From an uncultured virus (IMG/VR IMGVR_UViG_3300049847_000281) (lineage: Duplodnaviria > Heunggongvirae > Uroviricota > Caudoviricetes), in IMG/VR virus record IMGVR_UViG_3300049847_000281: a stretch of DNA of 20,000 nucleotides; one strand, given 5' to 3'. Position 1 is the first letter of the stretch; each line of letters begins with the position of its first letter. The notes beneath the pieces were generated by a model that ran no database searches, was not told where the DNA came from, and saw only the letters and a program-made list of their open reading frames with translations. Of the stretch, positions 3,562-20,000 are shown piece by piece. Both the position numbers and the translations under genes were made by a program.

Positions 3562-5007
3562 TTACTGGGGGTCAAGCAATACCATTTGGTTTCCGCCAAC
3601 GTGTTCTGCACCGATGTGCGAACGCAGGCAGAGCTTGTTGACATCCTTGCTGAGAACTTTCATGCCGGGAGCAGCACCTGATAGCGTCCACACTTCCGCT
3701 CTGCGGTTGTAGTTGCCCAGTGCTTTGTAGATGACTCCGAAGTACGGAACGTCCGTATTGCTCTTCAGGTCACGCTTGGTTCCCATTGGAATGAATGCTC
3801 CCAACGATGCTCCGTTGTAGCCGCTTGCTCCGTAGAGGCGCGGGTGAGAGAACACAGGCATGCGGGAGAACCCGAATGTGTAGCCGCTCTTTTCAAGAAC
3901 TCCGAAGCCAACGCTTGCCTCTAAGCCAGCGTCTCCGCCAAACACATTCTGCACCATCTGCTGACGCACATAGTTGATGTTTGTGTTTTGGAAATACGCT
4001 TTCAGCGTGTCGTCAATTTCGGTGTTCAGGTTGATGCCGATAAGACCGCAGATGTATTTCGGAGCAAACTGCTTGTCCAAAATTTTAGCGATGTCGTTCA
4101 GCGTCTGTACCGCGAATGTTCCCGGAGTGTACTGTTTCACGTTTCCGTTAGCAGCCATATAAGGGATGATACCTTCTGTGGTTTTCACTGGCTCAAACGC
4201 AGATGCGTCATAAGACGATGCGTCATAGATGGTAGACAAGGTGAGGTTACCAAAGAGCAGCGCACCGTCAATTTTCAGCTCATGCTCATAGTCCGTGTCC
4301 ATCTGCCCTTTCAGGTAGTAAGCCGGAATGTCGCCTGCTGTTTTGTAGGTGTCGAACCACGTTTGGTTGGTGGCTTGTGTGCCAGTCCATTTGTAGCCTG
4401 TTTTAATAATCTGAACATAAGAGGTGCTCATCTTAGGTTTGTTCACGATACCATCAGGATGTTCGCTTCCTTCAGGGTAAGCATTCGTGATGATGATAAG
4501 CTCCTGCTGGTCTGCCACAGCTGGTAACGCTACCGTTGCGTCCTGCGCAGTGATAGTGATGGTAACAGCGTTTGTGCCAAGTCCTGCGATGTCAGTAACC
4601 ACTCCGGTAACACGGTTAGGGTACATAATAACGTCTTGCAACTGCACAGGGCAGTAGTAGTAGTTAGCTCCGGTAGGAGGTGCCGGAAATCCGAGGAAGT
4701 CATCGTTCGGAGAAATTGCATTCAACACGATAGCCTGCACTTGAGGTGCATCTTGGTTACCTGATGGAGCAACAGCGCTTACCGCACCGTCCGAGTGGAA
4801 GGTTGGATGAATCCAGTCTTCTTCGTAGCTGATGGCTGAGTCCTGTGCAATAGCACGGGAATAGCCCAATGATTCGAGCAAGCGGAATGCGCTTAACCCT
4901 TGGTCGCCCTTAGAGCGAAACAGTTTGTTTCTTACCTCCGGTTTTTCAATGTCGAAAGTAGAGATGATATTGCTGGTCGTTATCCCAGCGGCTGATGTTT
5001 GATTCAT
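3562..5007 (-). CDS. Major capsid protein (HK97-fold expected; crAss-like/Bacteroidota phage type)
   Basis: 481 aa; motifs ISYEEDWIHP, NAYPEGSEHP, YVQIIKTGYKWTGT, IDGALLFG, KTTEGII are typical of this MCP class; lies downstream of a scaffold-like gene. Confidence 0.85.
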   Translation of the reverse strand: MNQTSAAGITTSNIISTFDIEKPEVRNKLFRSKGDQGLSAFRLLESLGYSRAIAQDSAISYEEDWIHPTFHSDGAVSAVAPSGNQDAPQVQAIVLNAISPNDDFLGFPAPPTGANYYYCPVQLQDVIMYPNRVTGVVTDIAGLGTNAVTITITAQDATVALPAVADQQELIIITNAYPEGSEHPDGIVNKPKMSTSYVQIIKTGYKWTGTQATNQTWFDTYKTAGDIPAYYLKGQMDTDYEHELKIDGALLFGNLTLSTIYDASSYDASAFEPVKTTEGIIPYMAANGNVKQYTPGTFAVQTLNDIAKILDKQFAPKYICGLIGINLNTEIDDTLKAYFQNTNINYVRQQMVQNVFGGDAGLEASVGFGVLEKSGYTFGFSRMPVFSHPRLYGASGYNGASLGAFIPMGTKRDLKSNTDVPYFGVIYKALGNYNRRAEVWTLSGAAPGMKVLSKDVNKLCLRSHIGAEHVGGNQMVLLDPQ

Positions 5008-5026: not shown

Positions 5027-6121
5027 TTACTTGAAATTTTTGATGCCGTTCTGCTGCGCAATAAATGAAGCTAAGTCCATGTTCTTGTCGGCAGGTGGCG
5101 TGGCTGGCGGAGTCTCCTCTTTTAATCCCGAAGGATGATGAGTGTCTTTCGCCCACTGTTTGTCTACCGCTGCTTTTATAGTACGGTTGATTTCCTTCTG
5201 ATTACGGAAGAAAATTTTACTCAACAAAATCTCTTTCATCTGCTGCAATCCTTCTTGGTCGGGATTAATGCCTACGGCATCAATTACCTGCTGCATTGTT
5301 TCCGTTACTTCGTTGATGGTTTCCTGCGGAACCTCAAAGGTCACCGAGTTTTTTTCATCAAACGGAATCTCAATTTTCTTTAGAGATTCAATGAACGGGG
5401 CAGTCTGAGGTTTCCACGAATCCACACGGGCTTGTCGCTGTGTTTCAAAATTCTGCTGCTCCCTTACAGATTGCGGTATCATCTGTTCGGACTTGTACTG
5501 AGCTAAATACTTCTTAGCTTCTTTGCCATCTAACCGCAGGTCAATACGCGCATCTTTGACATCCGGGTCATCGGCATCTAATTGGTCACTCAACTTGTAC
5601 TTTCGCGCTACTTTGAATTCGGCTTCTTCCTTAGACAGTCCGTGTTCGAAACGATACTTTAACACTAAAGCATCTTTCTCATTCAGCTTGTCTACATCGA
5701 TTCCGGCTACACGCTCATACACCTTCGGGTCACCACCTTTACTCACGTAATCGTTTAGTCCCTTGATGTAATCGTTAGCAAACTTTGGCGCTTGGCTAAG
5801 GTTGGTCTCCAACTCTTTTGCCTTCAGCTCTGCCGCAGAATACTTTCCTGATAGCTCGTCAAGTTCTTTGAGTTTATTCTGAATCTCTTCTGTCGTTTTA
5901 AACTTGCCCCCGAATCGCTCGTTGAGGTAAGTGGCTTCGTCAAAAGAGGTCTCATTCTTTTTTAGCTCTGCTGCGGGAGGTGTTTCTCCTGCTGGCGGAG
6001 GTTCGTTGTTAGCAGGTGGTGTAACCACAGGTGGTTCCACTACTGCCGCTGGCGGTTCGTTTCCTTCTACAACAGGCGTAAATCCTGCTGCCTGAAACGC
6101 TTCTTGTACTCTGTCTGTCAT
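5027..6121 (-). CDS. Putative capsid scaffolding/assembly protein
   Basis: 364 aa; acidic Pro-rich disordered N-terminus, coiled-coil-like body, short C-terminal helix; immediately upstream of MCP. Confidence 0.7.
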   Translation of the reverse strand: MTDRVQEAFQAAGFTPVVEGNEPPAAVVEPPVVTPPANNEPPPAGETPPAAELKKNETSFDEATYLNERFGGKFKTTEEIQNKLKELDELSGKYSAAELKAKELETNLSQAPKFANDYIKGLNDYVSKGGDPKVYERVAGIDVDKLNEKDALVLKYRFEHGLSKEEAEFKVARKYKLSDQLDADDPDVKDARIDLRLDGKEAKKYLAQYKSEQMIPQSVREQQNFETQRQARVDSWKPQTAPFIESLKKIEIPFDEKNSVTFEVPQETINEVTETMQQVIDAVGINPDQEGLQQMKEILLSKIFFRNQKEINRTIKAAVDKQWAKDTHHPSGLKEETPPATPPADKNMDLASFIAQQNGIKNFK

Positions 6122-6149: not shown

Positions 6150-6223
6150 TAGCGGGAGGCGGACTCGAACCACCGACATCCTGATTATGAGTCAGGTGTT
6201 CTGACCAGCTGAACTACCCCGCG
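6150..6223 (-). tRNA. tRNA with CAU anticodon (Met or Ile2; identity ambiguous), CCA not encoded
   Basis: Cloverleaf: acceptor CGCGGGG/TCCCGCT-A, D arm GTTC..GAAC, anticodon arm CCTGA-CTCATAA-TCAGG, T arm GGTGG-TTCGAGT-CCGCC. Confidence 0.92.
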
Positions 6224-8648: not shown

Positions 8649-9304
8649 TACAAGACAACTTCTCTAACGAAGAGTTCTCAACCATGCTCTTCAACGTGAT
8701 GAACATTCCTTCGGGCAAGACCATCACCGAAGTGTACCCGGAGCTTGCTAAGTACCCGGAGTTCGGAAATTATACAGGCATGGAGCCGGAGACACTGCTG
8801 CGCTATGTGTTCCTGATGTACGACCGTCACACACCACTGAAGAAAGTGGACGACATCATCTCGCGCAAAATACAGGCTGCGCAGATAGCCGGGTTCGAGC
8901 CAAACGAAAAGGGTTACTTCGACCGCTTGGTGGATGACATGATGCGTGGCTTTAACGCAGACGTAAACAAGATGATTATACGTGCGCTGCGCCTGCAACA
9001 CGACATCACGTTCTCTACGATGGTCACTGGCAACGAAGCGCTGTATCAGAAACAGGAACTCATCCTCTCGGCAGCAGACGAAGGAGAGAAGAAATCTCCG
9101 GTGGAGATAGAAAAAATTAAAGGCGAACTATGGAAGCAGGCAAAGGCGATGCGTGACGACCTCGACAAACTTGCACTCATCTGCCTCAACAACGACAACA
9201 ACCCTTATCTAAAGAAGGATTTATTTTGTGTAATCGACAGAGAAAGCCAGCAGCTAAACCTCACCCCGGAAAGGGTGGCTCAACGGCAGAATGCAGAAGC
9301 ATGA
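8645..9304 (+). CDS. Hypothetical protein, candidate terminase small subunit
   Basis: 219 aa, helical, overlaps the start of the large terminase; function inferred from position only. Confidence 0.55.
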   Translation: MIQDNFSNEEFSTMLFNVMNIPSGKTITEVYPELAKYPEFGNYTGMEPETLLRYVFLMYDRHTPLKKVDDIISRKIQAAQIAGFEPNEKGYFDRLVDDMMRGFNADVNKMIIRALRLQHDITFSTMVTGNEALYQKQELILSAADEGEKKSPVEIEKIKGELWKQAKAMRDDLDKLALICLNNDNNPYLKKDLFCVIDRESQQLNLTPERVAQRQNAEA

Positions 9305-11381
9305 ATACATAGCGGCAGATAAAGTATTAATTGTTAATGACGGTGACCCGGACTTAAAGCCCATCTCTATTCCCCTTCCTGAAGCTCCGGCTATGGAAGA
9401 CACGGACGGCTATGGTCTCGCCCCGGATAATCAGATATGGAAGCGCATGCCGCTGCCGCCACGCCTGCGGGAGCTGCATCACGCCAAGATGACCAACCGC
9501 GAGAAGTGGACATTCCTCAGCGACAACGCCAAGTCCTACAAAAAAGAAATCGACTACATCGCTCAGATGTGGGAGTACCGCATCAACGGCTACTGGCTCT
9601 TCATCAACGGCAAGCAGACGTGGATTAGCGGAGACCACTTCTTCTACCTCAACACATGGAACTTAGATGTAGGCTTCCCGGTCTACCGCAGCCGCGACAG
9701 AAAGTTCTACATCTTCAAATGGTTCTGCGACAACGACCCATTCTGCTTCGGCTTCAATTACCCAAAGTTCCGAAGAGAAGGCGCTACCAGCAAAACCAAG
9801 TGCGCAGAATACAATCTCATCTCCCGTTCCGCCAACTATCACAGCGGTATGCAGAGCATGAACCTCCAAAGCTCCGAGAAACTCTTCAACGGACACGTGG
9901 TAGAGCCGTGGCGCAAGCTGCCATTCTTCTTCCAGCCAGTTCACGAAGGAACTACTAACCCGAAGAGCGGACTGTTCTTCTATGCTCCGGCATATAAGAT
10001 GACTGCCGACAACGTAAAAGAAATTGAGACCGAAGAGCTGGCATCATCCATGACGTTCCTCGACTCAGGGGTGAAAGCCTATGACGGTCGCAAGCTGCAC
10101 TTCTATCACGGAGACGAGACAGGAAAAACCGAAGAGGTGAATGTCTATGCCCGGTGGCGCGTTGTCAAGCCCTGTCTAAGACTTGGCTCTACCATCATCG
10201 GCAAGTGCATCAACACCTCCACCGTAGGAGAGATGGATAAAGGTGGCGGTCGCCACTTCAAGCAGCTATGTGACGACAGCGACTATCACGACCGCAACAA
10301 GAACGGACAAACGAAGTCAGGCTTATACACCCTCTTCATCTCCTCAGCGGATGGCTTAGAAGGTAACGACCCGCAGACCGGGCTACCCTTCATTGATAAG
10401 TTTGGCAACTGCAACATCGAAGCTGCTACACAATATCTCCTCAACCAGCGCGAAGCATTTGAGTCAGATAACAACTACGAAGCCCTCAGCGACATGTACC
10501 GGGAGATGCCGCTCTTCTACAAAGAGTGCTGGAGGTCTAATGCCAAGAACTGCAACTTCAACCAAATCATCCTTCAGTCCCGCATCGATGAGCTGGACGG
10601 CAACAACCCCAATGTGGTGCGCGGAACATTTAAGTGGACGGACGACATTGCAGATTCTACCGTTTACTTCGAACCATCCGAGCACGGGCGCTTCTACGTC
10701 AGCTACCTGTTCGACCACCCCGGTCAGGCAAACCGCATATACCATAATGACGGACGCAAGTACCCCGCCAGCACCCAATTTTTCGTTGCAGGAGGCGACC
10801 CCTACCGCTTTAAAGTAACCCTCAACGAAAAGAAATCGAACGGAGCCGGAGCGGTGTTCATGAAATACAACATTGTCTTAGACCCTCCGGGCACAGACAT
10901 CAGCCGATGGAAGACGCACCGCTTCTGCTGCACCTACAGCTATCGTCCGCGTGACAAGTTCGAGTACGGAGAAGACATGATTAAGATGTGCGTCTACTAT
11001 GGCTGCGAGATGTTCCCCGAAATCAACGTAGACTTCCTGTGGGACTTCTTCGAAGAGCGCGGCTATGGCGGCTACCTCTTCTATCGCAAAGACCCTAAGA
11101 CGGGCTACTCCCTTAGAACACCGGGGCAGACGACTACCGACAAAGTAAAGGAAGCCATCTTCACCGAGTACCACACCTATATCGAACAGCACGGCAGACG
11201 TGAGCTGCACACCGAGCTGTTACAGGAGTGCTTGGACATCGAGAACGACATGACAGATTTTGACCGCTTCGTTGCCGGAGGTTATGCCCTGATGGGAGCT
11301 AAGAAGGTCGTATGGCAGGAGCAGGAAGCGCCTCTGTCCATAGAAGACTATGTAGAAACTTATATCGTAGAATCACAATAA
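9291..11381 (+). CDS. terL: Terminase large subunit
   Basis: Walker A variant KFRREGAT, Walker B FYHGDETGK, coupling motif INTST, RNase H-like nuclease residues AGGDPY and FDRFVAGG. Confidence 0.92.
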   Translation: MQKHEYIAADKVLIVNDGDPDLKPISIPLPEAPAMEDTDGYGLAPDNQIWKRMPLPPRLRELHHAKMTNREKWTFLSDNAKSYKKEIDYIAQMWEYRINGYWLFINGKQTWISGDHFFYLNTWNLDVGFPVYRSRDRKFYIFKWFCDNDPFCFGFNYPKFRREGATSKTKCAEYNLISRSANYHSGMQSMNLQSSEKLFNGHVVEPWRKLPFFFQPVHEGTTNPKSGLFFYAPAYKMTADNVKEIETEELASSMTFLDSGVKAYDGRKLHFYHGDETGKTEEVNVYARWRVVKPCLRLGSTIIGKCINTSTVGEMDKGGGRHFKQLCDDSDYHDRNKNGQTKSGLYTLFISSADGLEGNDPQTGLPFIDKFGNCNIEAATQYLLNQREAFESDNNYEALSDMYREMPLFYKECWRSNAKNCNFNQIILQSRIDELDGNNPNVVRGTFKWTDDIADSTVYFEPSEHGRFYVSYLFDHPGQANRIYHNDGRKYPASTQFFVAGGDPYRFKVTLNEKKSNGAGAVFMKYNIVLDPPGTDISRWKTHRFCCTYSYRPRDKFEYGEDMIKMCVYYGCEMFPEINVDFLWDFFEERGYGGYLFYRKDPKTGYSLRTPGQTTTDKVKEAIFTEYHTYIEQHGRRELHTELLQECLDIENDMTDFDRFVAGGYALMGAKKVVWQEQEAPLSIEDYVETYIVESQ

Positions 11382-11397
11382 CTAAACCCCACATACA

Positions 11398-13704
11398 ATG
11401 GAACTCTTTCAAGTTGAAAAGTATCAGAAAGGAAACTTCTTCGCACCGGGCGACAACATCGACCCGAAGGCGAAAGACAAAAAATGGTTTAAAGAGAAAG
11501 CCGAATTTCTCTACTCGCAGTATCTGCGCGACAACTGCGGCATACCGTACAGCCGCTTAGTCGACTTCTCGCTCTACCGTCTCTATGCTCAGGGCAGACA
11601 GCCCGTAGAGAAATACATGAACGTGCTGTGCCCCGTCAACAAAAAGACCGGGCTGCGCAAGATGTGGATGAACATCAGCTGGGACATCCTCTCAGTAGCG
11701 CCTAAGTACCGTCAGGTCGTCCTCGGTCGCCTCAGCAAAATCGATTACAAGGCGCAGTGCAACTGTGTCGATGAACTCAGCGATGAAGCGCGCAACAACC
11801 TCAAGTTCGGTATATGGGTGGAGAAGAAGCATCAGGAGTTTCTTCAGATGTTCGACAAAATCACAGGCACGGCTCCCGACCCGCAGCAACAGGAAATCCC
11901 GTATATGCCCGATACAATGGGAGAGCTGGACATGATGGCGAACATGGGCGCGTTCAAACTCAAGCACGAAATCGCTATGGAGAAACTCACAGACGCTGCC
12001 TTCAAAGAAAGCCTGTGGGAAGAAATCAAGCGCAAGCTGCACGAAGACTTCTATGACCTCGGTGTCGCTGCCGTCAAAGATTTCGTTGACCCGCTCACCC
12101 AGCGTGCGCAGACGCGCTATGTAGACCCGGCTAACCTTGTAGCGCGGTCTACCCGGTCTAATGACTACGAAGACATCAGCGAAGCAGGAGAGCTGAAGCT
12201 GTTCTCCCTCGCCACCATCAGCGAACTCACCGGGATGCCGGAAGACGAGGTGCGCAGAATAGCGAACGTATACCTCGGCTATGCCGTCAACAAAGCGCTG
12301 TTCTCAAACACCTTCTATCAGGACAGAGCCTACTACAACACACAGGTCTTAGTTCTCGACATGGAGTTCGAAAGTGCCGACACCCGCGTCTTCAAAAACT
12401 TCAAAGACAAGAACGGCAACGAAGTCACCGATGAGCGCAACTTCAACTACCAGCCCTCCGACACCGGAGCTGTGGCTAAGGGCGATGCGTCCATCAACAG
12501 AATCTCCGTGAAGCAGTGGTATCGCTGCAAATGGATTGTAGGCACTGACATCATCTTCGACTATGGCTATCAGATGGACGTGCCGCGCCTGCGCAAGAAC
12601 AAGCCTTGCTCGTCCTACCACATCTATAAAATTGCCGACAAGTCCATGCAGGCTTCCATCATCCAGCCGCTCGACCAAATTCAGTTCAACTACCTCAAGC
12701 TGCAAAACGACATCGCCAAAGCTCCGCCAGCGGGTGTGCGTATCGAATTCGGCTCGTTATCTAACATGGACATGGGAGAAGGTAAGATGAACCCGCTTGA
12801 AATCCTTTCCATCTACCGTCAGACGGGCGACTTGCTGTACAAGCGGACGACACAGAACGGACAGGTTGTGCAGGGAGCAGAGAACCCGATTGAGGAGCTG
12901 GCAGGCGGATTAGGGCGCGTGCTGGATGAACGAATCAAAATCTTCGAGTTCAACTTCAACATGATTCGTGACATCACAGGTGTGAACCAAGTAGTCGATG
13001 CCTCCAGCCCTGCTCCGGGCGCGTTAAACGGCACTTCGCAGATTGCGGCTAATGCCACCGACAATGTGCTGCAAGTGTTTCTGCACGGCTATAAGAACCT
13101 CAAGGTAGCCACCGCACGCAACCTCTGCAAGCGCATACAGATTATCTCCCGCTTTGGCGATGCCTCGCAATACTACGACATTGCCGGGCGTGCCAACATG
13201 GAGATTATCCGGCTGGGTGCGGGTAACGAGTTAGCCGACTACGGCATGTATTGCGAAGCTGCCATCACCGATGAGCAGCGTGACTTCGTGCGTCAGGCGG
13301 CTCTTACCTCACTCAATGCTGCCAAGCAGGGCGCTGTAGGCATCACCATGAGCGACTATCTCTTCATCGAGCGTGCCTTGGAAGCCGACCAAATCAAGTA
13401 CGCTCAGTTCTTCTTGGCTGCACGCGAGAAGCAGGAGTACATGAAACAGCAGGCGATGCAACAACAGAACATGCAACAGAACCAGCAGGGCGCTCAACAG
13501 GTGGAGCAGATGAAGAGTCAGGCGGCTGCGCAGCAGATGCAGATGCAGCAGCAGGGCATCCAGCAAGAGATTATGGCAAAGTTCAATGCCGACTCTCAGC
13601 TGGCGCAGCAGCAGCACGAAAACAAGATGAAGGAGATTACGCTGGAGAAGAACTTAGAGGCTGCGTTGCAGCTGAATCAGTCGAAGGCGGAAGTGAGACC
13701 GTAG
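11398..13704 (+). CDS. Portal protein
   Basis: 768 aa directly after terL; motifs RLYAQGRQPVEKY, MNISWDIL, RYVDPANL, IRDITGVN; Gln-rich coiled-coil C-terminal barrel as in podoviral/crAss-like portals. Confidence 0.88.
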   Translation: MELFQVEKYQKGNFFAPGDNIDPKAKDKKWFKEKAEFLYSQYLRDNCGIPYSRLVDFSLYRLYAQGRQPVEKYMNVLCPVNKKTGLRKMWMNISWDILSVAPKYRQVVLGRLSKIDYKAQCNCVDELSDEARNNLKFGIWVEKKHQEFLQMFDKITGTAPDPQQQEIPYMPDTMGELDMMANMGAFKLKHEIAMEKLTDAAFKESLWEEIKRKLHEDFYDLGVAAVKDFVDPLTQRAQTRYVDPANLVARSTRSNDYEDISEAGELKLFSLATISELTGMPEDEVRRIANVYLGYAVNKALFSNTFYQDRAYYNTQVLVLDMEFESADTRVFKNFKDKNGNEVTDERNFNYQPSDTGAVAKGDASINRISVKQWYRCKWIVGTDIIFDYGYQMDVPRLRKNKPCSSYHIYKIADKSMQASIIQPLDQIQFNYLKLQNDIAKAPPAGVRIEFGSLSNMDMGEGKMNPLEILSIYRQTGDLLYKRTTQNGQVVQGAENPIEELAGGLGRVLDERIKIFEFNFNMIRDITGVNQVVDASSPAPGALNGTSQIAANATDNVLQVFLHGYKNLKVATARNLCKRIQIISRFGDASQYYDIAGRANMEIIRLGAGNELADYGMYCEAAITDEQRDFVRQAALTSLNAAKQGAVGITMSDYLFIERALEADQIKYAQFFLAAREKQEYMKQQAMQQQNMQQNQQGAQQVEQMKSQAAAQQMQMQQQGIQQEIMAKFNADSQLAQQQHENKMKEITLEKNLEAALQLNQSKAEVRP

Positions 13705-15286: not shown

Positions 15287-15402
15287 CTCTTTGTTTTTTT
15301 ATAGATGATGAACTCTTCTGTTGTCTCTGTTTTCTCCAGCACTATCTCATAGACCTTCCCTGTCTGATAGTCGTACTCGATGGCTCTTAGTTGTTTGCTC
15401 AT
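15241..15402 (-). CDS. Small hypothetical protein (53 aa, below the ORF-track cut-off)
   Basis: ATG at 15402 overlaps the TGA of the upstream gene; MSKQLRAIEYDYQTGKVYEIVLEKTETTEEFIIYKKTKRCLKNLTLSTTAKGK*. Confidence 0.5.
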   Translation of the reverse strand: MSKQLRAIEYDYQTGKVYEIVLEKTETTEEFIIYKKTKRCLKNLTLSTTAKGK

Positions 15403-16088
15403 CATCTATAGCATTTACCAAGTTTTATCCTGCTCACCGTATGCTCTCCCACACCATACTTCTCCGCAATCTGCTTTCCCGTCAGCTTCCCTGCGCGCAG
15501 CGCCAGCTTAATCCTGCCTACAACGCACCTGTCTGTGCCGGGTGTAGCATGCTTAGCTCTGTTGTACTGCGGTCTTATATCGCCCCAGCATTCACCTCTC
15601 GCTATTCTGTGTATTGTCATCTTTGTAACACCGTAGCTTTTCGCCAGCTTAGACACACTCCTCTTGTTTACGGCAAGAGCATGTTTAATAAGCCCCGCCT
15701 CTTTTGCTGTAAGGGTATAGTTGCCGCGCTCTCCGCCTCTCACTTTGTTGAGCCGGGAAATGCGGTGATAGAACTTCGCTATCTCGCTCTTCGACATCCA
15801 CTTCAGATTCTTTAGCGTCAGATTACTTTTGTCGCCATCTATCACCATCGCATCTCTGCCGTTACGGTTTCCCTTAAATGTCTGCAACAACACATTCGCC
15901 ACCGTGAATCCTTTTTTCTTTAACGGCTTAGACCCGGACACAGCTACATCAAATCCTTTGTGCCCGTGTATGTTTCGCCCTCTCAGAATTCTTCTTGTTC
16001 CTGATTGCGAAACACTCATAATCTTCCCGTCATCCGACACGAAGTAGGACGAGCGTGTTGCAAAGTCGAATTTAATTTCTTTCCACAT
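15402..16088 (-). CDS. NUMOD4 / degenerate HNH protein with two C-terminal HTH repeats
   Basis: N-terminal MWKEI..YFVSDDGKIMS (NUMOD4-like); VANVLLQTF...MVIDGDKSNLTLKNLKW (HNH_3-like, lacking His); HTHs SVSKLAKSYGVTKMTIHRIARG and TGKQIAEKYGVGEHTVSRIKLG. Confidence 0.75.
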   Translation of the reverse strand: MWKEIKFDFATRSSYFVSDDGKIMSVSQSGTRRILRGRNIHGHKGFDVAVSGSKPLKKKGFTVANVLLQTFKGNRNGRDAMVIDGDKSNLTLKNLKWMSKSEIAKFYHRISRLNKVRGGERGNYTLTAKEAGLIKHALAVNKRSVSKLAKSYGVTKMTIHRIARGECWGDIRPQYNRAKHATPGTDRCVVGRIKLALRAGKLTGKQIAEKYGVGEHTVSRIKLGKCYR

Positions 16089-16900: not shown

Positions 16901-17261
16901 TCTTACCCTGCAACTTCTCCTCAAGGTCTCGCACAAACTTCCGCTTCCGCTCTCTGTCCCACGTGTTCCATATCACCGCCTCTGCCGGAGAGAGCTGTAT
17001 CGTCCTGCCGCCAAACTCCACCAACACGTAATCCTGTTCCGGCTTCACCTTGGCGCTGAGGTACTCGTCTTTCGTCATCGGCTCGTCTACCCACTGCTCA
17101 CGAAATCGCTTCCGCTCTCTGTGCGCACGGTAAATAAAAACAGTTGTCACAACAATAGCTGTTGCAACAACTATCAGGAACGCCAGTGTTACCGAGTCGG
17201 CTTTGCCGATGCTCCATGTGTCGTTTTCGATGAAGAGGGTCTGTATCATTTTGTGGCGCAA
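16881..17261 (-). CDS. Small membrane-anchored protein
   Basis: TM helix VTLAFLIVVATAIVVTTVFIY followed by a basic stretch; the start is probably the ATG at 17249. Confidence 0.7.
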   Translation of the reverse strand: MRHKMIQTLFIENDTWSIGKADSVTLAFLIVVATAIVVTTVFIYRAHRERKRFREQWVDEPMTKDEYLSAKVKPEQDYVLVEFGGRTIQLSPAEAVIWNTWDRERKRKFVRDLEEKLQGKKTKPRL

Positions 17262-17332
17262 GGTAAATAATTTTCGAAATATATTGTACAGGACATAAAT
17301 TGTTTTTATAATTGCAGCTTAAAATAAAGAAG

Positions 17333-17536
17333 ATGATAACAGACCAAGAACATAACGACCACTACTTCAAAAACTTTAAAAAGAAGTTTACCGAGAACAA
17401 AGTAAAGATTACACTCGCATGTGGTGTAACCGCAGATGACAAGGTGCTGCTGGCGACAGTGGACATGTCTGATAAAAAAGACACCGTGATGATGTTGCGC
17501 GCTATGGCGGATGTGATTGAGAAAAAACTTACATAG
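17333..17536 (+). CDS. Hypothetical protein
   Basis: ATG at 17333 after an A-rich leader; first gene of a rightward unit. Confidence 0.6.
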   Translation: MITDQEHNDHYFKNFKKKFTENKVKITLACGVTADDKVLLATVDMSDKKDTVMMLRAMADVIEKKLT

Positions 17537-17551
17537 GCAGATAAAACACAA

Positions 17552-17848
17552 ATGAAAAAAATTAGCACATTATTTAAGAAAGACCCGAATGATTTGGGCA
17601 GAGTTATGAATGAAGTAAATCCTGAAAACCAATGGGTATTTGATGGCGAAGGAATTGCTACACGAAAGTTTGACGGAACAGCCGTAGCAATTATTAACGG
17701 TGAACTTTACAAACGCTATGATGTAAAGAAGGGAAGGCAAATACCTGACGGAGCTATTGCTTGCCAAGAAGCTGATGAAATTACAGGACATCATCCACAT
17801 TGGTTGAAGTGCGAAAGAAGCAAAGCAGTTACCGATGAACTTAATTAG
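17552..17848 (+). CDS. RNA-ligase-like (nucleotidyltransferase motif) phage protein, probably C-terminally truncated
   Basis: MKKISTLF...ATRKFDGTAVAI carries a KxDG motif I; only 98 aa, ending just before the cassette array. Confidence 0.55.
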   Translation: MKKISTLFKKDPNDLGRVMNEVNPENQWVFDGEGIATRKFDGTAVAIINGELYKRYDVKKGRQIPDGAIACQEADEITGHHPHWLKCERSKAVTDELN

Positions 17849-17861
17849 ATGCACGGCTATT

Positions 17862-17971
17862 GCTACTAACGTTATCGGGGTTAAAGCAGTTAAAAGTGCC
17901 TACTGCAAACTCCGAATTAAGCACAAAACTAAATGGCACTTTTTATTGCTTTTAACCCTCGTGTTATTGGC
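17862..17971. repeat. attC-like site 1
   Basis: GCTACTAAC-N7-GGGTTAAAGCAGTTAAAAGTGCC (17878-17900), 34-nt loop, GGCACTTTTTATTGCTTTTAACCC (17935-17958)-N4-GTTATTGGC. Confidence 0.8.
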
Positions 17972-17989
17972 TGATTAAATTTACGGAAT

Positions 17990-18310
17990 ATGAAAGACAA
18001 ATCTAAAATCAAAGAACCGAAAATCGGGGACAAAATTTATGTGCCATCATCTTACTATGTGTATCGTGGCGAAGATGATTTTGAAGGAGGACTGGCAACC
18101 ATTACGAAGGTGGAGCATAGCAAGCACTTACCAAAGGGACACGTTAATTATACGATGGTAGGAATTGAAGGCAGACCAAGCACAATGTATAATTGGACGG
18201 TGCTTGCGGAAGAACAAGACGAACTGAAAAAAGAATATGGAAAGCAAGTGGCACATTCCAACCCCGATTTGCGACCAGAGTTTAATCAACCTGATGCTGA
18301 TTGGAAGTAG
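17990..18310 (+). CDS. Cassette A hypothetical protein (SH3/KOW-like start PKIGDKIYV)
   Basis: 106 aa; bracketed by IR GTTATTGGCtgATTAAATTTAC (17963-17984) / GTAAATTTAATttGCCAATAAC (18318-18339). Confidence 0.8.
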   Translation: MKDKSKIKEPKIGDKIYVPSSYYVYRGEDDFEGGLATITKVEHSKHLPKGHVNYTMVGIEGRPSTMYNWTVLAEEQDELKKEYGKQVAHSNPDLRPEFNQPDADWK

Positions 18311-18330
18311 GAACGTAGTAAATTTAATTT

Positions 18331-18431
18331 GCCAATAACGTTCGGAGGGTTTGCGAAGTGCCGCTTACCACAAAATCCAATTTCAGCACTAAACTTCATA
18401 GCGGCATTTTGCAAACCCTATGTTATATGAA
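18331..18431. repeat. attC-like site 2
   Basis: GCCAATAAC-N6-AGGGTTTGCGAAGTGCCGCT (18346-18365), 34-nt loop, AGCGGCATTTTGCAAACCCT (18400-18419)-AT-GTTATATGAA. Confidence 0.8.
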
Positions 18432-18473
18432 GTAAAATAAACGAAGGGTGGGCATCAATTAAACAATTAAAAA

Positions 18474-18803
18474 ATGATTACAAAAATTTACGGAGCATCG
18501 GACGATTTGATAGAAATTGAAGGTGCTATTTCAGACGAAGTAAATGTTTACCTAAAGGACAATGAGAAAGTAAATTTTTCTGCATCCGATGGAACGAAAG
18601 GCAAAATTAGCTACGATGATGAAGGGCAATGGCGAATTGAAGTGCTTGATGCAGGAAGTAAGTGCAGAACTAAAATTGCTGCTGTTGGCGAAGATGCTGC
18701 ACACATTGGCGATGCTGCTGGATGCACTTCATATTCCGATGTGCTAATTTTAGAAGAAGGAATTGAATGGGTCAAAATCAAGGGTAAAACTTTCAAATCG
18801 TAG
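18474..18803 (+). CDS. Cassette B hypothetical protein (YGASDDLIE motif family)
   Basis: 109 aa; bracketed by IR GTTATATGAAgTAAAATAAACG (18422-18443) / CGTTTATTTTAtTTCATATAAC (18815-18836). Confidence 0.8.
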   Translation: MITKIYGASDDLIEIEGAISDEVNVYLKDNEKVNFSASDGTKGKISYDDEGQWRIEVLDAGSKCRTKIAAVGEDAAHIGDAAGCTSYSDVLILEEGIEWVKIKGKTFKS

Positions 18804-18826
18804 CGGTGCGGTGGCGTTTATTTTAT

Positions 18827-18933
18827 TTCATATAACGTTCGGTGGATTAAAGAAGAATGGCGCACCACAACTGCCCGTTCAAAGCGAAAATGTTCATTGC
18901 GCCATTTTTCTTTTAATCCATTTGTTATCGGAA
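18827..18933. repeat. attC-like site 3
   Basis: TTCATATAAC-N6-TGGATTAAAGAAGAATGGCGCA (18843-18864), 33-nt loop, TGCGCCATTTTTCTTTTAATCCA (18898-18920)-TTT-GTTATCGGAA. Confidence 0.8.
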
Positions 18934-19020
18934 GCCGCATCGGTGAACTTCATTCGGAGCAAAAGAAAAAATTAAATAAATTATTTGCGTGGGATTTTTA
19001 ACTATTAAACTATAAACAAA

Positions 19021-19488
19021 ATGACAACAGAAGAAATTACAAAGGGCAACATACTGATTGCCGAATTTATGGGAACAACTTATTGGAAGGCATACAATTT
19101 TGTAAAGGATTATCATTATTGGGCAACTCATTTCAATACGAAAGAGGAATGTCAAATGAAAATTGACGAAATCTTTTATGAAAATCAAAGAGGCGACATT
19201 GTTCCAAAACTTTGTTGGGGCGAAAGATTTGATATGAACTGGGGCGACCTGATGCCTGTAGTTGTAAAGATTAGCAAATATAAATACGAAGATGGCGACA
19301 CTGCTTATCTGCGAACCTTTGGGATGCTGAACGCTGAAACGGGCAAACCAATGGTTAGAATAAATCGCTGTTGTGTAATTGAAGCCGACACTTTAATTGA
19401 AGCAACCTATGGAGCAGTAATAGATTTCCTGACCTATATGAAAAATGAAGAGGCACGATTAACTAATTTAACTGAGCGTGGGGAATAA
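19021..19488 (+). CDS. Cassette C hypothetical protein (NxLIAEFMG...WxxLMPVVxKI family of Bacteroidota phages)
   Basis: 155 aa; bracketed by IR GTTATCGGAAgCCGC (18924-18938) / GCGGtTTCCGATAAC (19541-19555). Confidence 0.8.
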   Translation: MTTEEITKGNILIAEFMGTTYWKAYNFVKDYHYWATHFNTKEECQMKIDEIFYENQRGDIVPKLCWGERFDMNWGDLMPVVVKISKYKYEDGDTAYLRTFGMLNAETGKPMVRINRCCVIEADTLIEATYGAVIDFLTYMKNEEARLTNLTERGE

Positions 19489-19545
19489 TTTATTTAATTT
19501 TTTCTCATCCAAGTTAGCAGAATCTTCAATCGGAGCTATGGCGGT

Positions 19546-19700
19546 TTCCGATAACGGAATAGGGCTTTACGCTCGTTGTTTTTATTTGGATTAGAAAACT
19601 AAAACTTAATAATATGGAAGAAAATACGATTGAAAGAACAATGCTCACTACACCGATGTCGCCAAATAAAAACAATGGCGTTAAAGCTAATGTTATTGGC
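19546..19700. repeat. attC-like site 4 (long loop containing a translation start)
   Basis: TTCCGATAAC-N8-GCTTTACGCTCGTTGTTTTTATTTGG (19564-19589), 72-nt loop, CCAAATAAAAACAATGGCGTTAAAGC (19662-19687)-TAAT-GTTATTGGC. Confidence 0.78.
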
Positions 19701-19877
19701 TGTTTTCGCAAAAGGACTTTTATAGAGGTATTTTGTAAGAAGTGCGGAATTAGATATAGCGATGATGGTGAGTATGAGAAAGTGTTTCAAGATAAGGCAG
19801 ATGCTATTGAAACGATAACGCAAGATGATAACTGGCTTGTTAAAGGACGGGATGCCTTTTGCGAAAATTGCCAATAA
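19614..19877 (+). CDS. Cassette D small zinc-binding protein (CKKC...CENC)
   Basis: 87 aa; starts in the hairpin loop; IR GTTATTGGCtgTTTTCGCAAAAGG (19692-19715) / CCTTTTGCGAAAAttGCCAATAAC (19855-19878); the stop TAA lies in the core TAAC. Confidence 0.72.
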   Translation: MEENTIERTMLTTPMSPNKNNGVKANVIGCFRKRTFIEVFCKKCGIRYSDDGEYEKVFQDKADAIETITQDDNWLVKGRDAFCENCQ

Positions 19878-19931
19878 CACTCCAGTTACAGAAACCCCTC
19901 AATCAAATCACAATTATGCGGGAATTTTTCT

Positions 19932-19963
19932 TTTGCCCACAAAATACATTTAACCTACATTTG
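19932..19963 (+). promoter_or_regulatory. Full-consensus Bacteroidota sigma-A promoter
   Basis: -33 TTTG (19932-19935), 20-nt spacer, -7 TACATTTG (19956-19963). Confidence 0.7.
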
Positions 19964-19968
19964 CCCAA

Positions 19969-20000
19969 ATGAAAGTAAGCCAACCAATCCTCAACGAATG
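19969..20000 (+). CDS. Start of a probably leaderless ORF running off the window (MKVSQPILNE...)
   Basis: ATG 5 nt after the -7 box; frame open to the edge. Confidence 0.4.
   Translation, partial: MKVSQPILNE

Follow-up and report, generated by a model that had tools for sequence, protein, structure and literature searches.

A probable integron-type cassette array with its genes on the hairpin strand in an uncultured Caudoviricetes phage

In classical integrons, the recombination site, attC, is located downstream of its open reading frame (ORF), the coding strand being the top strand. Clusters of attC sites lacking integron integrases (CALINs) are by definition found without an integrase gene. 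In the so-called inverted-integrase integrons it is the integrase gene, and not the cassette genes, that is turned, while Xer-dependent dif modules use fixed 28-bp double-stranded sites and not folded hairpins with private ends. The closest published system to the one considered here is that of the phage CALINs; 17 attC clusters without an integrase are reported in phages, and five of six tested phage sites recombine with IntI1 (Qi 2023, PMC9892861). The closest known units composed of an element plus the gene downstream of it are the promoter-early stem-loops (PeSLs) of T4-type phages, which flank small genes and yield mini-circles (Arbiol 2010, PMC2839356). Here, we describe an array of four units, each composed of a hairpin followed by a gene, at positions 17871-19878 of a 20,000-nt stretch of DNA (the entire stretch is referred to as the window) from an uncultured freshwater virus of the Caudoviricetes (IMG/VR record IMGVR_UViG_3300049847_000281). 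The array is probably of integron type, with its genes on the hairpin strand, and is referred to as CALIN-like because no recombinase gene is found in the 20 kb. The host of this phage is most likely a Flavobacterium-like member of the Bacteroidota.

As in integron arrays and phage CALINs, an imperfect hairpin lies between AAC and GTT cores, its structure rather than its sequence being conserved, the genes are single, small and co-oriented, the ends of each cassette are complementary, and exchange appears to take place at the AAC core. Related phages carry methyltransferase cassettes, as do phage CALINs, and where a recombinase is present it is found, as in integrons, beyond the array end on the strand that matches the attC bottom strand. 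Unlike in integron arrays, the genes of the phage arrays are located on the "bottom-like" strand, i.e., the site precedes the gene; the outer box pairs over 15 bp, including a fixed G.T, compared to about 7 bp in integrons; the spacer measures 5 nt towards the 5' core and 1 nt towards the 3' core; and the loop contains a conserved motif and, in a class with long loops, a start codon. The window harbors no IntI, and the recombinase linked to arrays of relatives is short, Xer-like and scores below the integron-integrase cut-off. Inverted-integrase integrons and dif modules share with the present arrays a tyrosine recombinase, an orientation of gene and recombinase unlike that of class 1 integrons and modules bounded by inverted sites. 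The likeness to PeSLs lies in the stem-loop in front of small accessory genes in variable phage regions, the modular shuffling and the unit of element plus downstream gene; unlike PeSLs, which consist of a sigma-70 promoter plus terminator exchanged by homology (PMC2839356), the present sites show no promoter or terminator enrichment, and they have a covarying structure, private ends and a linked tyrosine recombinase. In the accessible part of PMC9892861 no discussion of reversed polarity, long cassette ends or an Xer-like partner was found, and a literature search, outside of which most subscription journals fell, gave no description of reversed polarity, 15-bp ends or such a partner.

Each unit of the array starts with an imperfect hairpin of 82-136 nt, bounded by ..AAC on the 5' side and GTT.. 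on the 3' side, after which comes one small gene enclosed in a private inverted repeat of 15 bp, where the right arm ends in TAAC and position 11 is a fixed G.T pair (Table 1). The first AAC of the array ends at 17870, and the array closes with ATAAC at 19874-19878. The four hairpins and four gene-flanking repeats had been listed in an initial annotation of this DNA, and all of them are found where it placed them. It had also described the stem mismatches as mostly G.T on the + strand; the stems indeed contain five G.T pairs on this strand (1, 2, 1 and 1 in hairpins 1-4), plus one T.T, and the gene-flanking repeats have G.T at position 11 in all four cases and T.T at position 10 in two. Folded as single-stranded DNA, the coding strand is the more stable one at all four sites, as had been proposed (+/- strand, -17.6/-16.5, -20.4/-16.0, -20.8/-19.9 and -19.5/-16.8 kcal/mol for hairpins 1-4), with z-scores of -2.5 to -3.8 for the + strand hairpins against dinucleotide shuffles. 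The same strand dependence is seen with a covariance model of the sites (described below), which gives hairpin 2 only 22.5 bits on the reverse strand compared to 105.5 bits on the forward strand; after 19700 this model finds no match. Also the claim that the ORF at 19614-19877 starts inside hairpin 4 holds, its ATG being located in the loop. For the cassette A protein no relative was found in the viral contig collection. Cassette C also contains a nested, perfect 22-nt inverted repeat (18964-18985/19484-19505), which closely flanks its ORF and lacks GTTA/TAAC ends.

Table 1. Features of the array, its flanks and other parts of the window
Feature	Position	Strand	Description
Hairpin 1	17871..17962	+	Short-loop class; between AAC 17868-17870 and GTT 17963-17965; covariance model 74.1 bits, E 1.8e-16
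Cassette A	17963..18339	+	Left end 17963-17977, ORF 17990-18310 (106 aa), right end 18325-18339; ends 10/12 matched, G.T at position 11
Hairpin 2	18340..18421	+	Short-loop class; covariance model 105.5 bits, E 5e-25; 20 arm pairs, of which 2 are G.T
Cassette B	18422..18836	+	ORF 18474-18803, 109 aa; phrog_10666 (function unknown)
Hairpin 3	18837..18923	+	Short-loop class; covariance model 67.8 bits, E 9e-15
Cassette C	18924..19555	+	ORF 19021-19488, 155 aa; outer 15-bp ends 11/12 matched, G.T at position 11
Hairpin 4	19556..19691	+	Long-loop class; covariance model 22 bits, E 0.028; loop carries the ATG (19614) of the ORF 3' of it
Cassette D	19692..19878	+	Body of ORF 19614-19877 (87 aa, Cys-rich); both ends coding; stop TAA within terminal ATAAC
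Unit 4 (hairpin 4 + cassette D)	19556..19878	+	Present or absent in the sampled population (X1 contigs)
Flank after terminal core	19879..19970	+	No hairpin; next ORF, from 19971, runs off the window
RNA ligase fragment	17552..17848	+	N-terminal half, residues 1-91 of about 185; phrog_14301 profile positions 1-91/186; reads into foreign tail
Apparent remnant, 3' end of a lost cassette	17825..17870	+	46-nt foreign tail; orphan 15-nt right end 17856-17870 (..TAAC)
SU10-type capsid protein	3562..5007	-	
tRNA	6150..6223	-	Rfam RF00005, 60.4 bits; among structural genes
Large terminase	9291..11381		
Portal	11398..13704		
HNH endonuclease	15402..16088	-	With helix-turn-helix domains; 1.7 kb 5' of the array

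Contigs in which the surroundings of a gene change reveal which of its two neighboring hairpins accompanies it, a check that the initial annotation had suggested. This evidence consists throughout of assembled contigs, where X1 is possibly the source sample, and X6 and X3 are from two other studies; parts of the window that are uncovered in X2, X3 and X6 do not count as absence, and the small shares of runs X2-X24 carry no information on habitat. In X6, a 1492-nt contig matches only 18336-18837 (17 differences), i.e., hairpin 2 and cassette B, from the TAAC before hairpin 2 to the AAC (plus G) before hairpin 3, with another cassette end on the 5' side and another hairpin arm on the 3' side. 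A 461-nt contig from X3, the end of which is located inside hairpin 1, matches 17915-18340 and diverges directly after the AAC. In X1, one contig path spans 19526-19903 at a depth of 28.5 and another joins 19550 to 19874 at a depth of 42.4, i.e., the short form skips the 323 nt (19551-19873) that correspond to hairpin 4 and cassette D. The five letters ATAAC fit both sides, and the X1 joint can be placed only to within this shared sequence; the breaks in X6 and X3 are within 1-4 nt of AAC. Units 1, 2 and 4 thus carry their own upstream hairpin, are not accompanied by the downstream one, and break at the AAC core. These boundaries lead to the conclusion that the hairpin belongs with the downstream gene and that the exchange point is the AAC core, as had been proposed.

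The hairpins belong to a larger family of sites. A covariance model built from five sites found 28 further sites around the ligase genes of other viral contigs. A consensus DNA pattern is found in at least 127 stretches of viral contigs, where raw counts are not family sizes as the pattern also matches unrelated genomes by chance. The search for the phage family took in 80 loci fetched from these stretches; on the 80 viral loci the model gave 215 matches at E<=0.05, on one strand per locus and at most 10 per locus. For further analysis 216 of 248 rows were kept, after removal of six overlapping loci and three reverse-strand rows. Among 131 distinct aligned sites, 89.9% of the cells are paired compared to 64.4% in shuffles. 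In this alignment, which is fitted to the structure of the model, both partners vary in 23 of 28 pairs, with a covariation score of 0.587 compared to 0.146 in shuffles (none of 500 reaches it; slid controls, <=0.078). The cores themselves pair: alignment columns 6-10 with 219-223 in 126-130 of the 131 sites, and in all four window sites. The arms contain conserved 10-nt stretches, the loop motif is conserved, and the loops fall into three classes, in which the cores are about 45, 85 and 120 nt apart. The two sides of the spacer are unequal, with medians of 5 nt after AAC and 1 nt before GTT.

The two strands of the site are distinguished by conserved G.T pairs and one conserved mismatch. The stem G.T pairs are found at three positions, in 129, 119 and 81 of the 131 sites, and are on the coding strand, which is also the strand with the more stable fold at 155 of 208 sites (48 for the other strand). 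Another strand mark that had been proposed, an unpaired extra T on the right arm of hairpins 1, 3 and 4, is present in the window (two bulged T on the 3' arm of hairpin 1, one each in hairpins 3 and 4, and in hairpin 4 also one on the 5' arm), but is not a feature of the family.

Among cultured phages, the Flavobacterium phage vB_FspS_lillamy9-1 has 10 matches at E<=0.0012, i.e., 10 or more sites; the words hairpin, repeat, palindrome and stem-loop are absent from the main text of the paper describing it. Polaribacter phage P12002L has one weak match (E 0.05), and no site at E<1 is found in Cellulophaga phage phi10:1, the closest of the cultured phages with the ligase. A published site, P12002L_attC1, has the architecture of the present family; the strand listed as its "bottom" strand (table S3 of PMC9892861) is the gene-sense strand, and it is located between two methyltransferase genes. 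It belongs to a class of "mini" sites of about 45 nt with a recurrent loop motif (TCGTTTTAATG), found for example in L072, L033, L069 and L191 (P12002L, about 30037), which score poorly because the model was built on 100-nt sites. At 29208 and 37234 of P12002L (L191), a repeat of ~75 nt follows a terminal ..TAAC core; the published P12002L_attC2, which recombined with IntI1 (PMC9892861), is this ~75-nt repeat on the other strand.

The complementary gene-flanking ends are equally widespread. In intervals between neighboring hairpins, the two ends match at 10 or more of 13 positions in 83 of 145 cases, compared to 13 of 2000 random pairs. The repeat has a length of exactly 15 bp, with GTTA/TAAC fixed at positions 1-4; positions 5-7, 9-10 and 12-15 vary yet stay paired (80-100%), and in 79 of the 83 the left end has G and the right end T at position 11. 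This G/T signature is found on the hairpin strand in 225 of 280 pairs and never on the other strand, and therefore marks the strand independently of the covariance model. The left end that follows the last hairpin of an array has its partner downstream in 37 of 46 arrays (control, 0/52). The left flank of the first hairpin has an upstream partner in 17 of 52 (control, 1/46), judged by eye to be mostly behind hairpins undetected by the model. For 107 hairpins with 2 kb of sequence to either side, an exact 9-mer test detected both partners at 68, only the downstream partner at 27, only the upstream partner at 6 and neither at 6 (wrong-side controls, 4 and 3). In a test of arm complementarity, a hairpin was found before the start of a chain in 71 of 89 cases and after its end in 39 of 84 (background, 19 and 15 of 201). 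These family-wide counts agree with a unit of hairpin plus downstream gene, less cleanly than do the window's own units.

The polarity of the phage arrays, which the initial annotation had described as reversed, is evident from the ORFs nearest to the sites: 393 are on the hairpin strand, 24 on the opposite strand, and none is found in 15 cases. In addition, in 75 of 157 long-loop hairpins an ATG, typically 42 nt before the core, opens a frame that continues through the right arm as an ORF of at least 40 aa (short-loop hairpins, 1/46; antisense control, 2/157). In the long-loop hairpins of L062-L141, two reading frames run through the right arm and core, and many unrelated cassette proteins thereby have similar N-termini, which end in ..FCQTRVSGS.. 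or ..FAKPVLGAVP..; at other long-loop sites a short loop ORF may stop at the TAG of the GTTAG core (L001, 7230-7365).

The same sites are found in bacterial chromosomes. The bacterial set is composed of 23 of 80 fetched loci, 19 from Bacteroidota and 4 from other phyla; 35 sites were confirmed with the model, distributed over 17 of the former (Flavobacterium, Chitinophagaceae, Algoriphagus and others), and none in the latter. These chromosomal sites belong to the same covariance family, and their 15-bp ends, which carry G/T on the hairpin strand, are like those of the phage sites. They differ in that the nearest ORFs are on the opposite strand in 56 of 64 flanks (8 on the same strand; no ORF in 6 further cases), i.e., host arrays have the classical polarity and phage arrays the reverse. 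The chromosomal cassettes are also larger; among the genes found in them (L256, L216, L238, L210, L197 and L263) are those for restriction-modification systems, GmrSD, a reverse transcriptase, a HEPN protein and a beta-lactamase-family protein. Judged by this gene content, the chromosomal arrays look like a store of defence genes of the integron kind. Integrons were reported to be rare in Bacteroidetes with IntegronFinder 2.0, and in view of this rarity the Bacteroidota chromosomal arrays may be under-recognised.

The enzyme that would act on these sites is suggested by neighboring genes. One Flavobacterium chromosomal array adjoins a tyrosine recombinase that is Xer/IntI-like, scoring 226 bits to the NCBIfam entry "site-specific tyrosine recombinase/integron integrase" (cut-off 220). 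Of 36 array-bearing phage records searched over their full length, 11 contain a PF00589 match. Eight of the phage recombinases are short (267-301 aa), on the hairpin strand and downstream of the array. Six directly follow the terminal TAAC; in five of these the catalytic domain begins 344-383 nt past the core, and in L008 the start codon is found 66 nt past it. The remaining two are located 1064 and 2202 nt from the last detected cassette. Seen from the hairpin strand, a classical integron is composed of the array, a docking region and an integrase that reads away from them. By analogy, the phage array with its recombinase would have, from the same strand, the geometry of a classical integron, and the 60-90 nt flank leading into the recombinase gene is a candidate docking (attI-like) site. 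In the flanks after the terminal TAAC of 41 arrays, many sequences begin with T, followed within about 15 nt by a TATAT(G/A)TA or TATACGC-like motif (e.g., L008 at 2763, L124 at 6025 and L073 at 7101); the window's own flank, from 19879 onward, is without such a motif.

From these observations a mechanism can be proposed. The mobile unit would be a hairpin, a 15-bp left end, one gene and a 15-bp right end closing in TAAC, and units would enter, leave and change place through exchange at the (T)AAC core located 5' of the hairpin. In attC, this corresponds to the point, between A and C, at which the folded bottom strand is cut by integron integrases. With the genes on the hairpin, or "bottom-like", strand, the site would precede the gene, be transcribed with it and, in the long-loop class, supply its start codon. 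The circumstantial case for the enzyme is strong, and we infer that recombination is site-specific and carried out by the short Xer-like tyrosine recombinase of some related phages and host chromosomes, which in the present phage would act in trans. The substrate would be the folded gene-sense strand.

A number of observations weigh against this interpretation. No recombinase was found among the 25 larger ORFs of the 20-kb window, and 25 of the 36 related phage records are likewise without a recombinase match. The recombinases of relatives score 207.5 (the Flavobacterium gene) and 159.9 bits to the integron-integrase model TIGR02249, below its cut-off of 265 and each as two stretches. The published mini site P12002L_attC1, the only site of this architecture for which a published test exists, is the one of six without verified recombination by the class 1 integrase IntI1 (PMC9892861). 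The unit boundaries come from assembled contigs throughout, with X1 maybe the source sample, and the 323-nt loss in X1, between two 5-nt repeats, could equally have come from replication slippage. Comparison of homologous cassettes from different loci gave 18 pairs, of which seven have different upstream neighbors, with the upstream hairpin kept in two of the seven. In six such pairs that were aligned, the homology begins at the left core in two, at the right (GTT) core in three and within the cassette in one. In one of the right-core pairs both neighbors are shared and the hairpin alone differs. At L020 5858-5959 and L019 about 5880-5950, the two neighboring cassettes are the same and the hairpin between them differs (85-nt class and mini class, respectively), i.e., the hairpin is replaceable on its own. 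Hairpin and cassette can thus also re-assort at the GTT core. Bulges in 199 hairpins show no arm bias (29 on 5' arms, 21 on 3' arms), and the covariation score carries the dependence on the model's structure noted above.

Among the alternatives, the one that fares best, although it is unlikely, is that the hairpins are regulatory cassettes of the PeSL type, i.e., intergenic expression signals between which genes are shuffled by homologous recombination, without a dedicated recombinase or folded DNA. The many array-bearing phages without a recombinase, the occurrence of breakpoints at both ends of the hairpin, the conserved 10-nt stretches of the arms and the start codon that the hairpin bears for many genes all fit such a scheme, as does the flanking of small genes by PeSLs. 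However, the hairpins within one array differ in sequence, with compensatory changes that keep the structure, and the private 15-bp ends with their fixed G.T would have no role in homologous exchange. All three breakpoints observed in the window are within a few bases of the AAC core, and a tyrosine recombinase gene is found downstream of eight arrays. At 17200-20000, neither promoter-like nor terminator-like sites are enriched: the number of sigma-70 promoter-like sites is 10 compared to 8.9 +/- 2.9, with none at the hairpins, in a scan that does not cover Bacteroidota promoters, and that of terminator-like sites is 2 compared to 2.0 +/- 1.7, where no hairpin scores as a terminator.

Still less probable is that the hairpins and stems act only in the transcript, in processing, stability or translation start, where G.T would be G.U and any mobility incidental. 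The conserved wobble positions are all on the transcribed sense strand, the coding strand folds better, and the start codon resides in the loop at a typical distance from the core, in line with such a role. The Bacteroidota chromosomal sites, however, carry the same strand signature while being antisense to the genes, and therefore the signature follows the site and not the mRNA. In addition, the presence of units varies, they are also found in other surroundings, the breaks being at the core, a recombinase is located near eight arrays, and no Rfam family matches the hairpins. An added role of the hairpins as RNA in phages is possible.

We consider it very improbable that the polarity is classical, with each gene owning its downstream hairpin, exchange at the right GTT core and an array that only looks shifted. 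Complementary cassette ends are predicted by both models, and the three related cassette pairs that break at the right core, together with the 6 of 107 hairpins that have only an upstream cassette partner, are in line with the classical order. The contigs in X6, X3 and X1, where the upstream hairpin travels and the downstream one does not, contradict it for units 1, 2 and 4 of the window; arrays end in a bare TAAC with most of the last left ends partnered downstream; ORFs begin inside the upstream hairpin; and in the two homologous pairs where downstream hairpins can be compared, these differ (0.53 identity each). Finally, insertion of hairpin-led units 3' of a TAAC target by a Y1 HUH enzyme, as in IS200/IS605 or systems of repetitive extragenic palindromes with their associated tyrosine transposases (REP/RAYT), would account for strand-specific features and for units that are located 3' of TAAC and themselves end in TAAC, but is the least probable since Y1_Tnp (PF01797) is found in none of 31 array-bearing phage records compared to 6 of 14 control genomes, the hairpins are 80-140 nt with long loops, and the enzyme near the arrays is a tyrosine recombinase and not HUH.

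The 5' boundary of the array bears on one further claim. The initial annotation had taken as signs of polarity that the core of hairpin 1 has no upstream partner and that the array ends without a hairpin. Both are observed: for the sequence at 17856-17870, which agrees with the right-end consensus in its T at position 11 and its C at position 8, the best GTT-anchored partner in 13001-17800 matches at 7 of 12 positions, compared to 10-11 of 12 for the four real cassette pairs. As evidence of polarity the first is weak, as the missing partner is better explained by deletion. DNA homology of the ligase region stops at 17824, and among relatives at 56 loci the RNA ligase is mostly a full gene of ~180-200 aa (two are cut by the end of the locus). 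Judged from these sequences, a deletion looks to have fused half of the ligase gene to the end of a lost cassette, and because the flank looks like such a remnant, the missing partner says little about polarity by itself. The full ligase gene of related phages forms a cassette of its own, bounded by GTTAG...CTAAC ends. A megablast search of the entire window against cultured phages gave no match; the phage genes within it, together with a tRNA gene and an HNH endonuclease gene, are listed in Table 1.

Returning to the integron-type array, recombination at folded single-stranded DNA has its textbook example in integrons, in which the choice of strand and the orientation of cassettes are taken as fixed. 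Here, one kind of site serves two cassette pools of opposite gene polarity, one in host chromosomes, including defence genes, and one in their phages, where the pool of related phages includes methyltransferases among small genes of unknown function. A tentative extension, which we consider possible though not the likelier case, is that Bacteroidota phages run an integron of their own, where a short Xer-like recombinase, encoded at the array end or supplied in trans, recombines sense-strand hairpins. The sense strand would then perhaps be exposed by transcription or replication, and the phage-specific cassette pool would be built the other way round from the host cassettes. The site would double as a translation start module, and a phage operon could be extended by new genes at its 3' end. 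In vB_FspS phages, plating efficiency was linked to whether a methyltransferase is present (Nilsson 2020). Such arrays are carried by cultured Flavobacterium phage-host pairs, which makes the system testable, and it offers a natural setting in which to study what sets strand choice, how a short Xer-like enzyme compares to IntI, and how phages trade in accessory and counter-defence genes.

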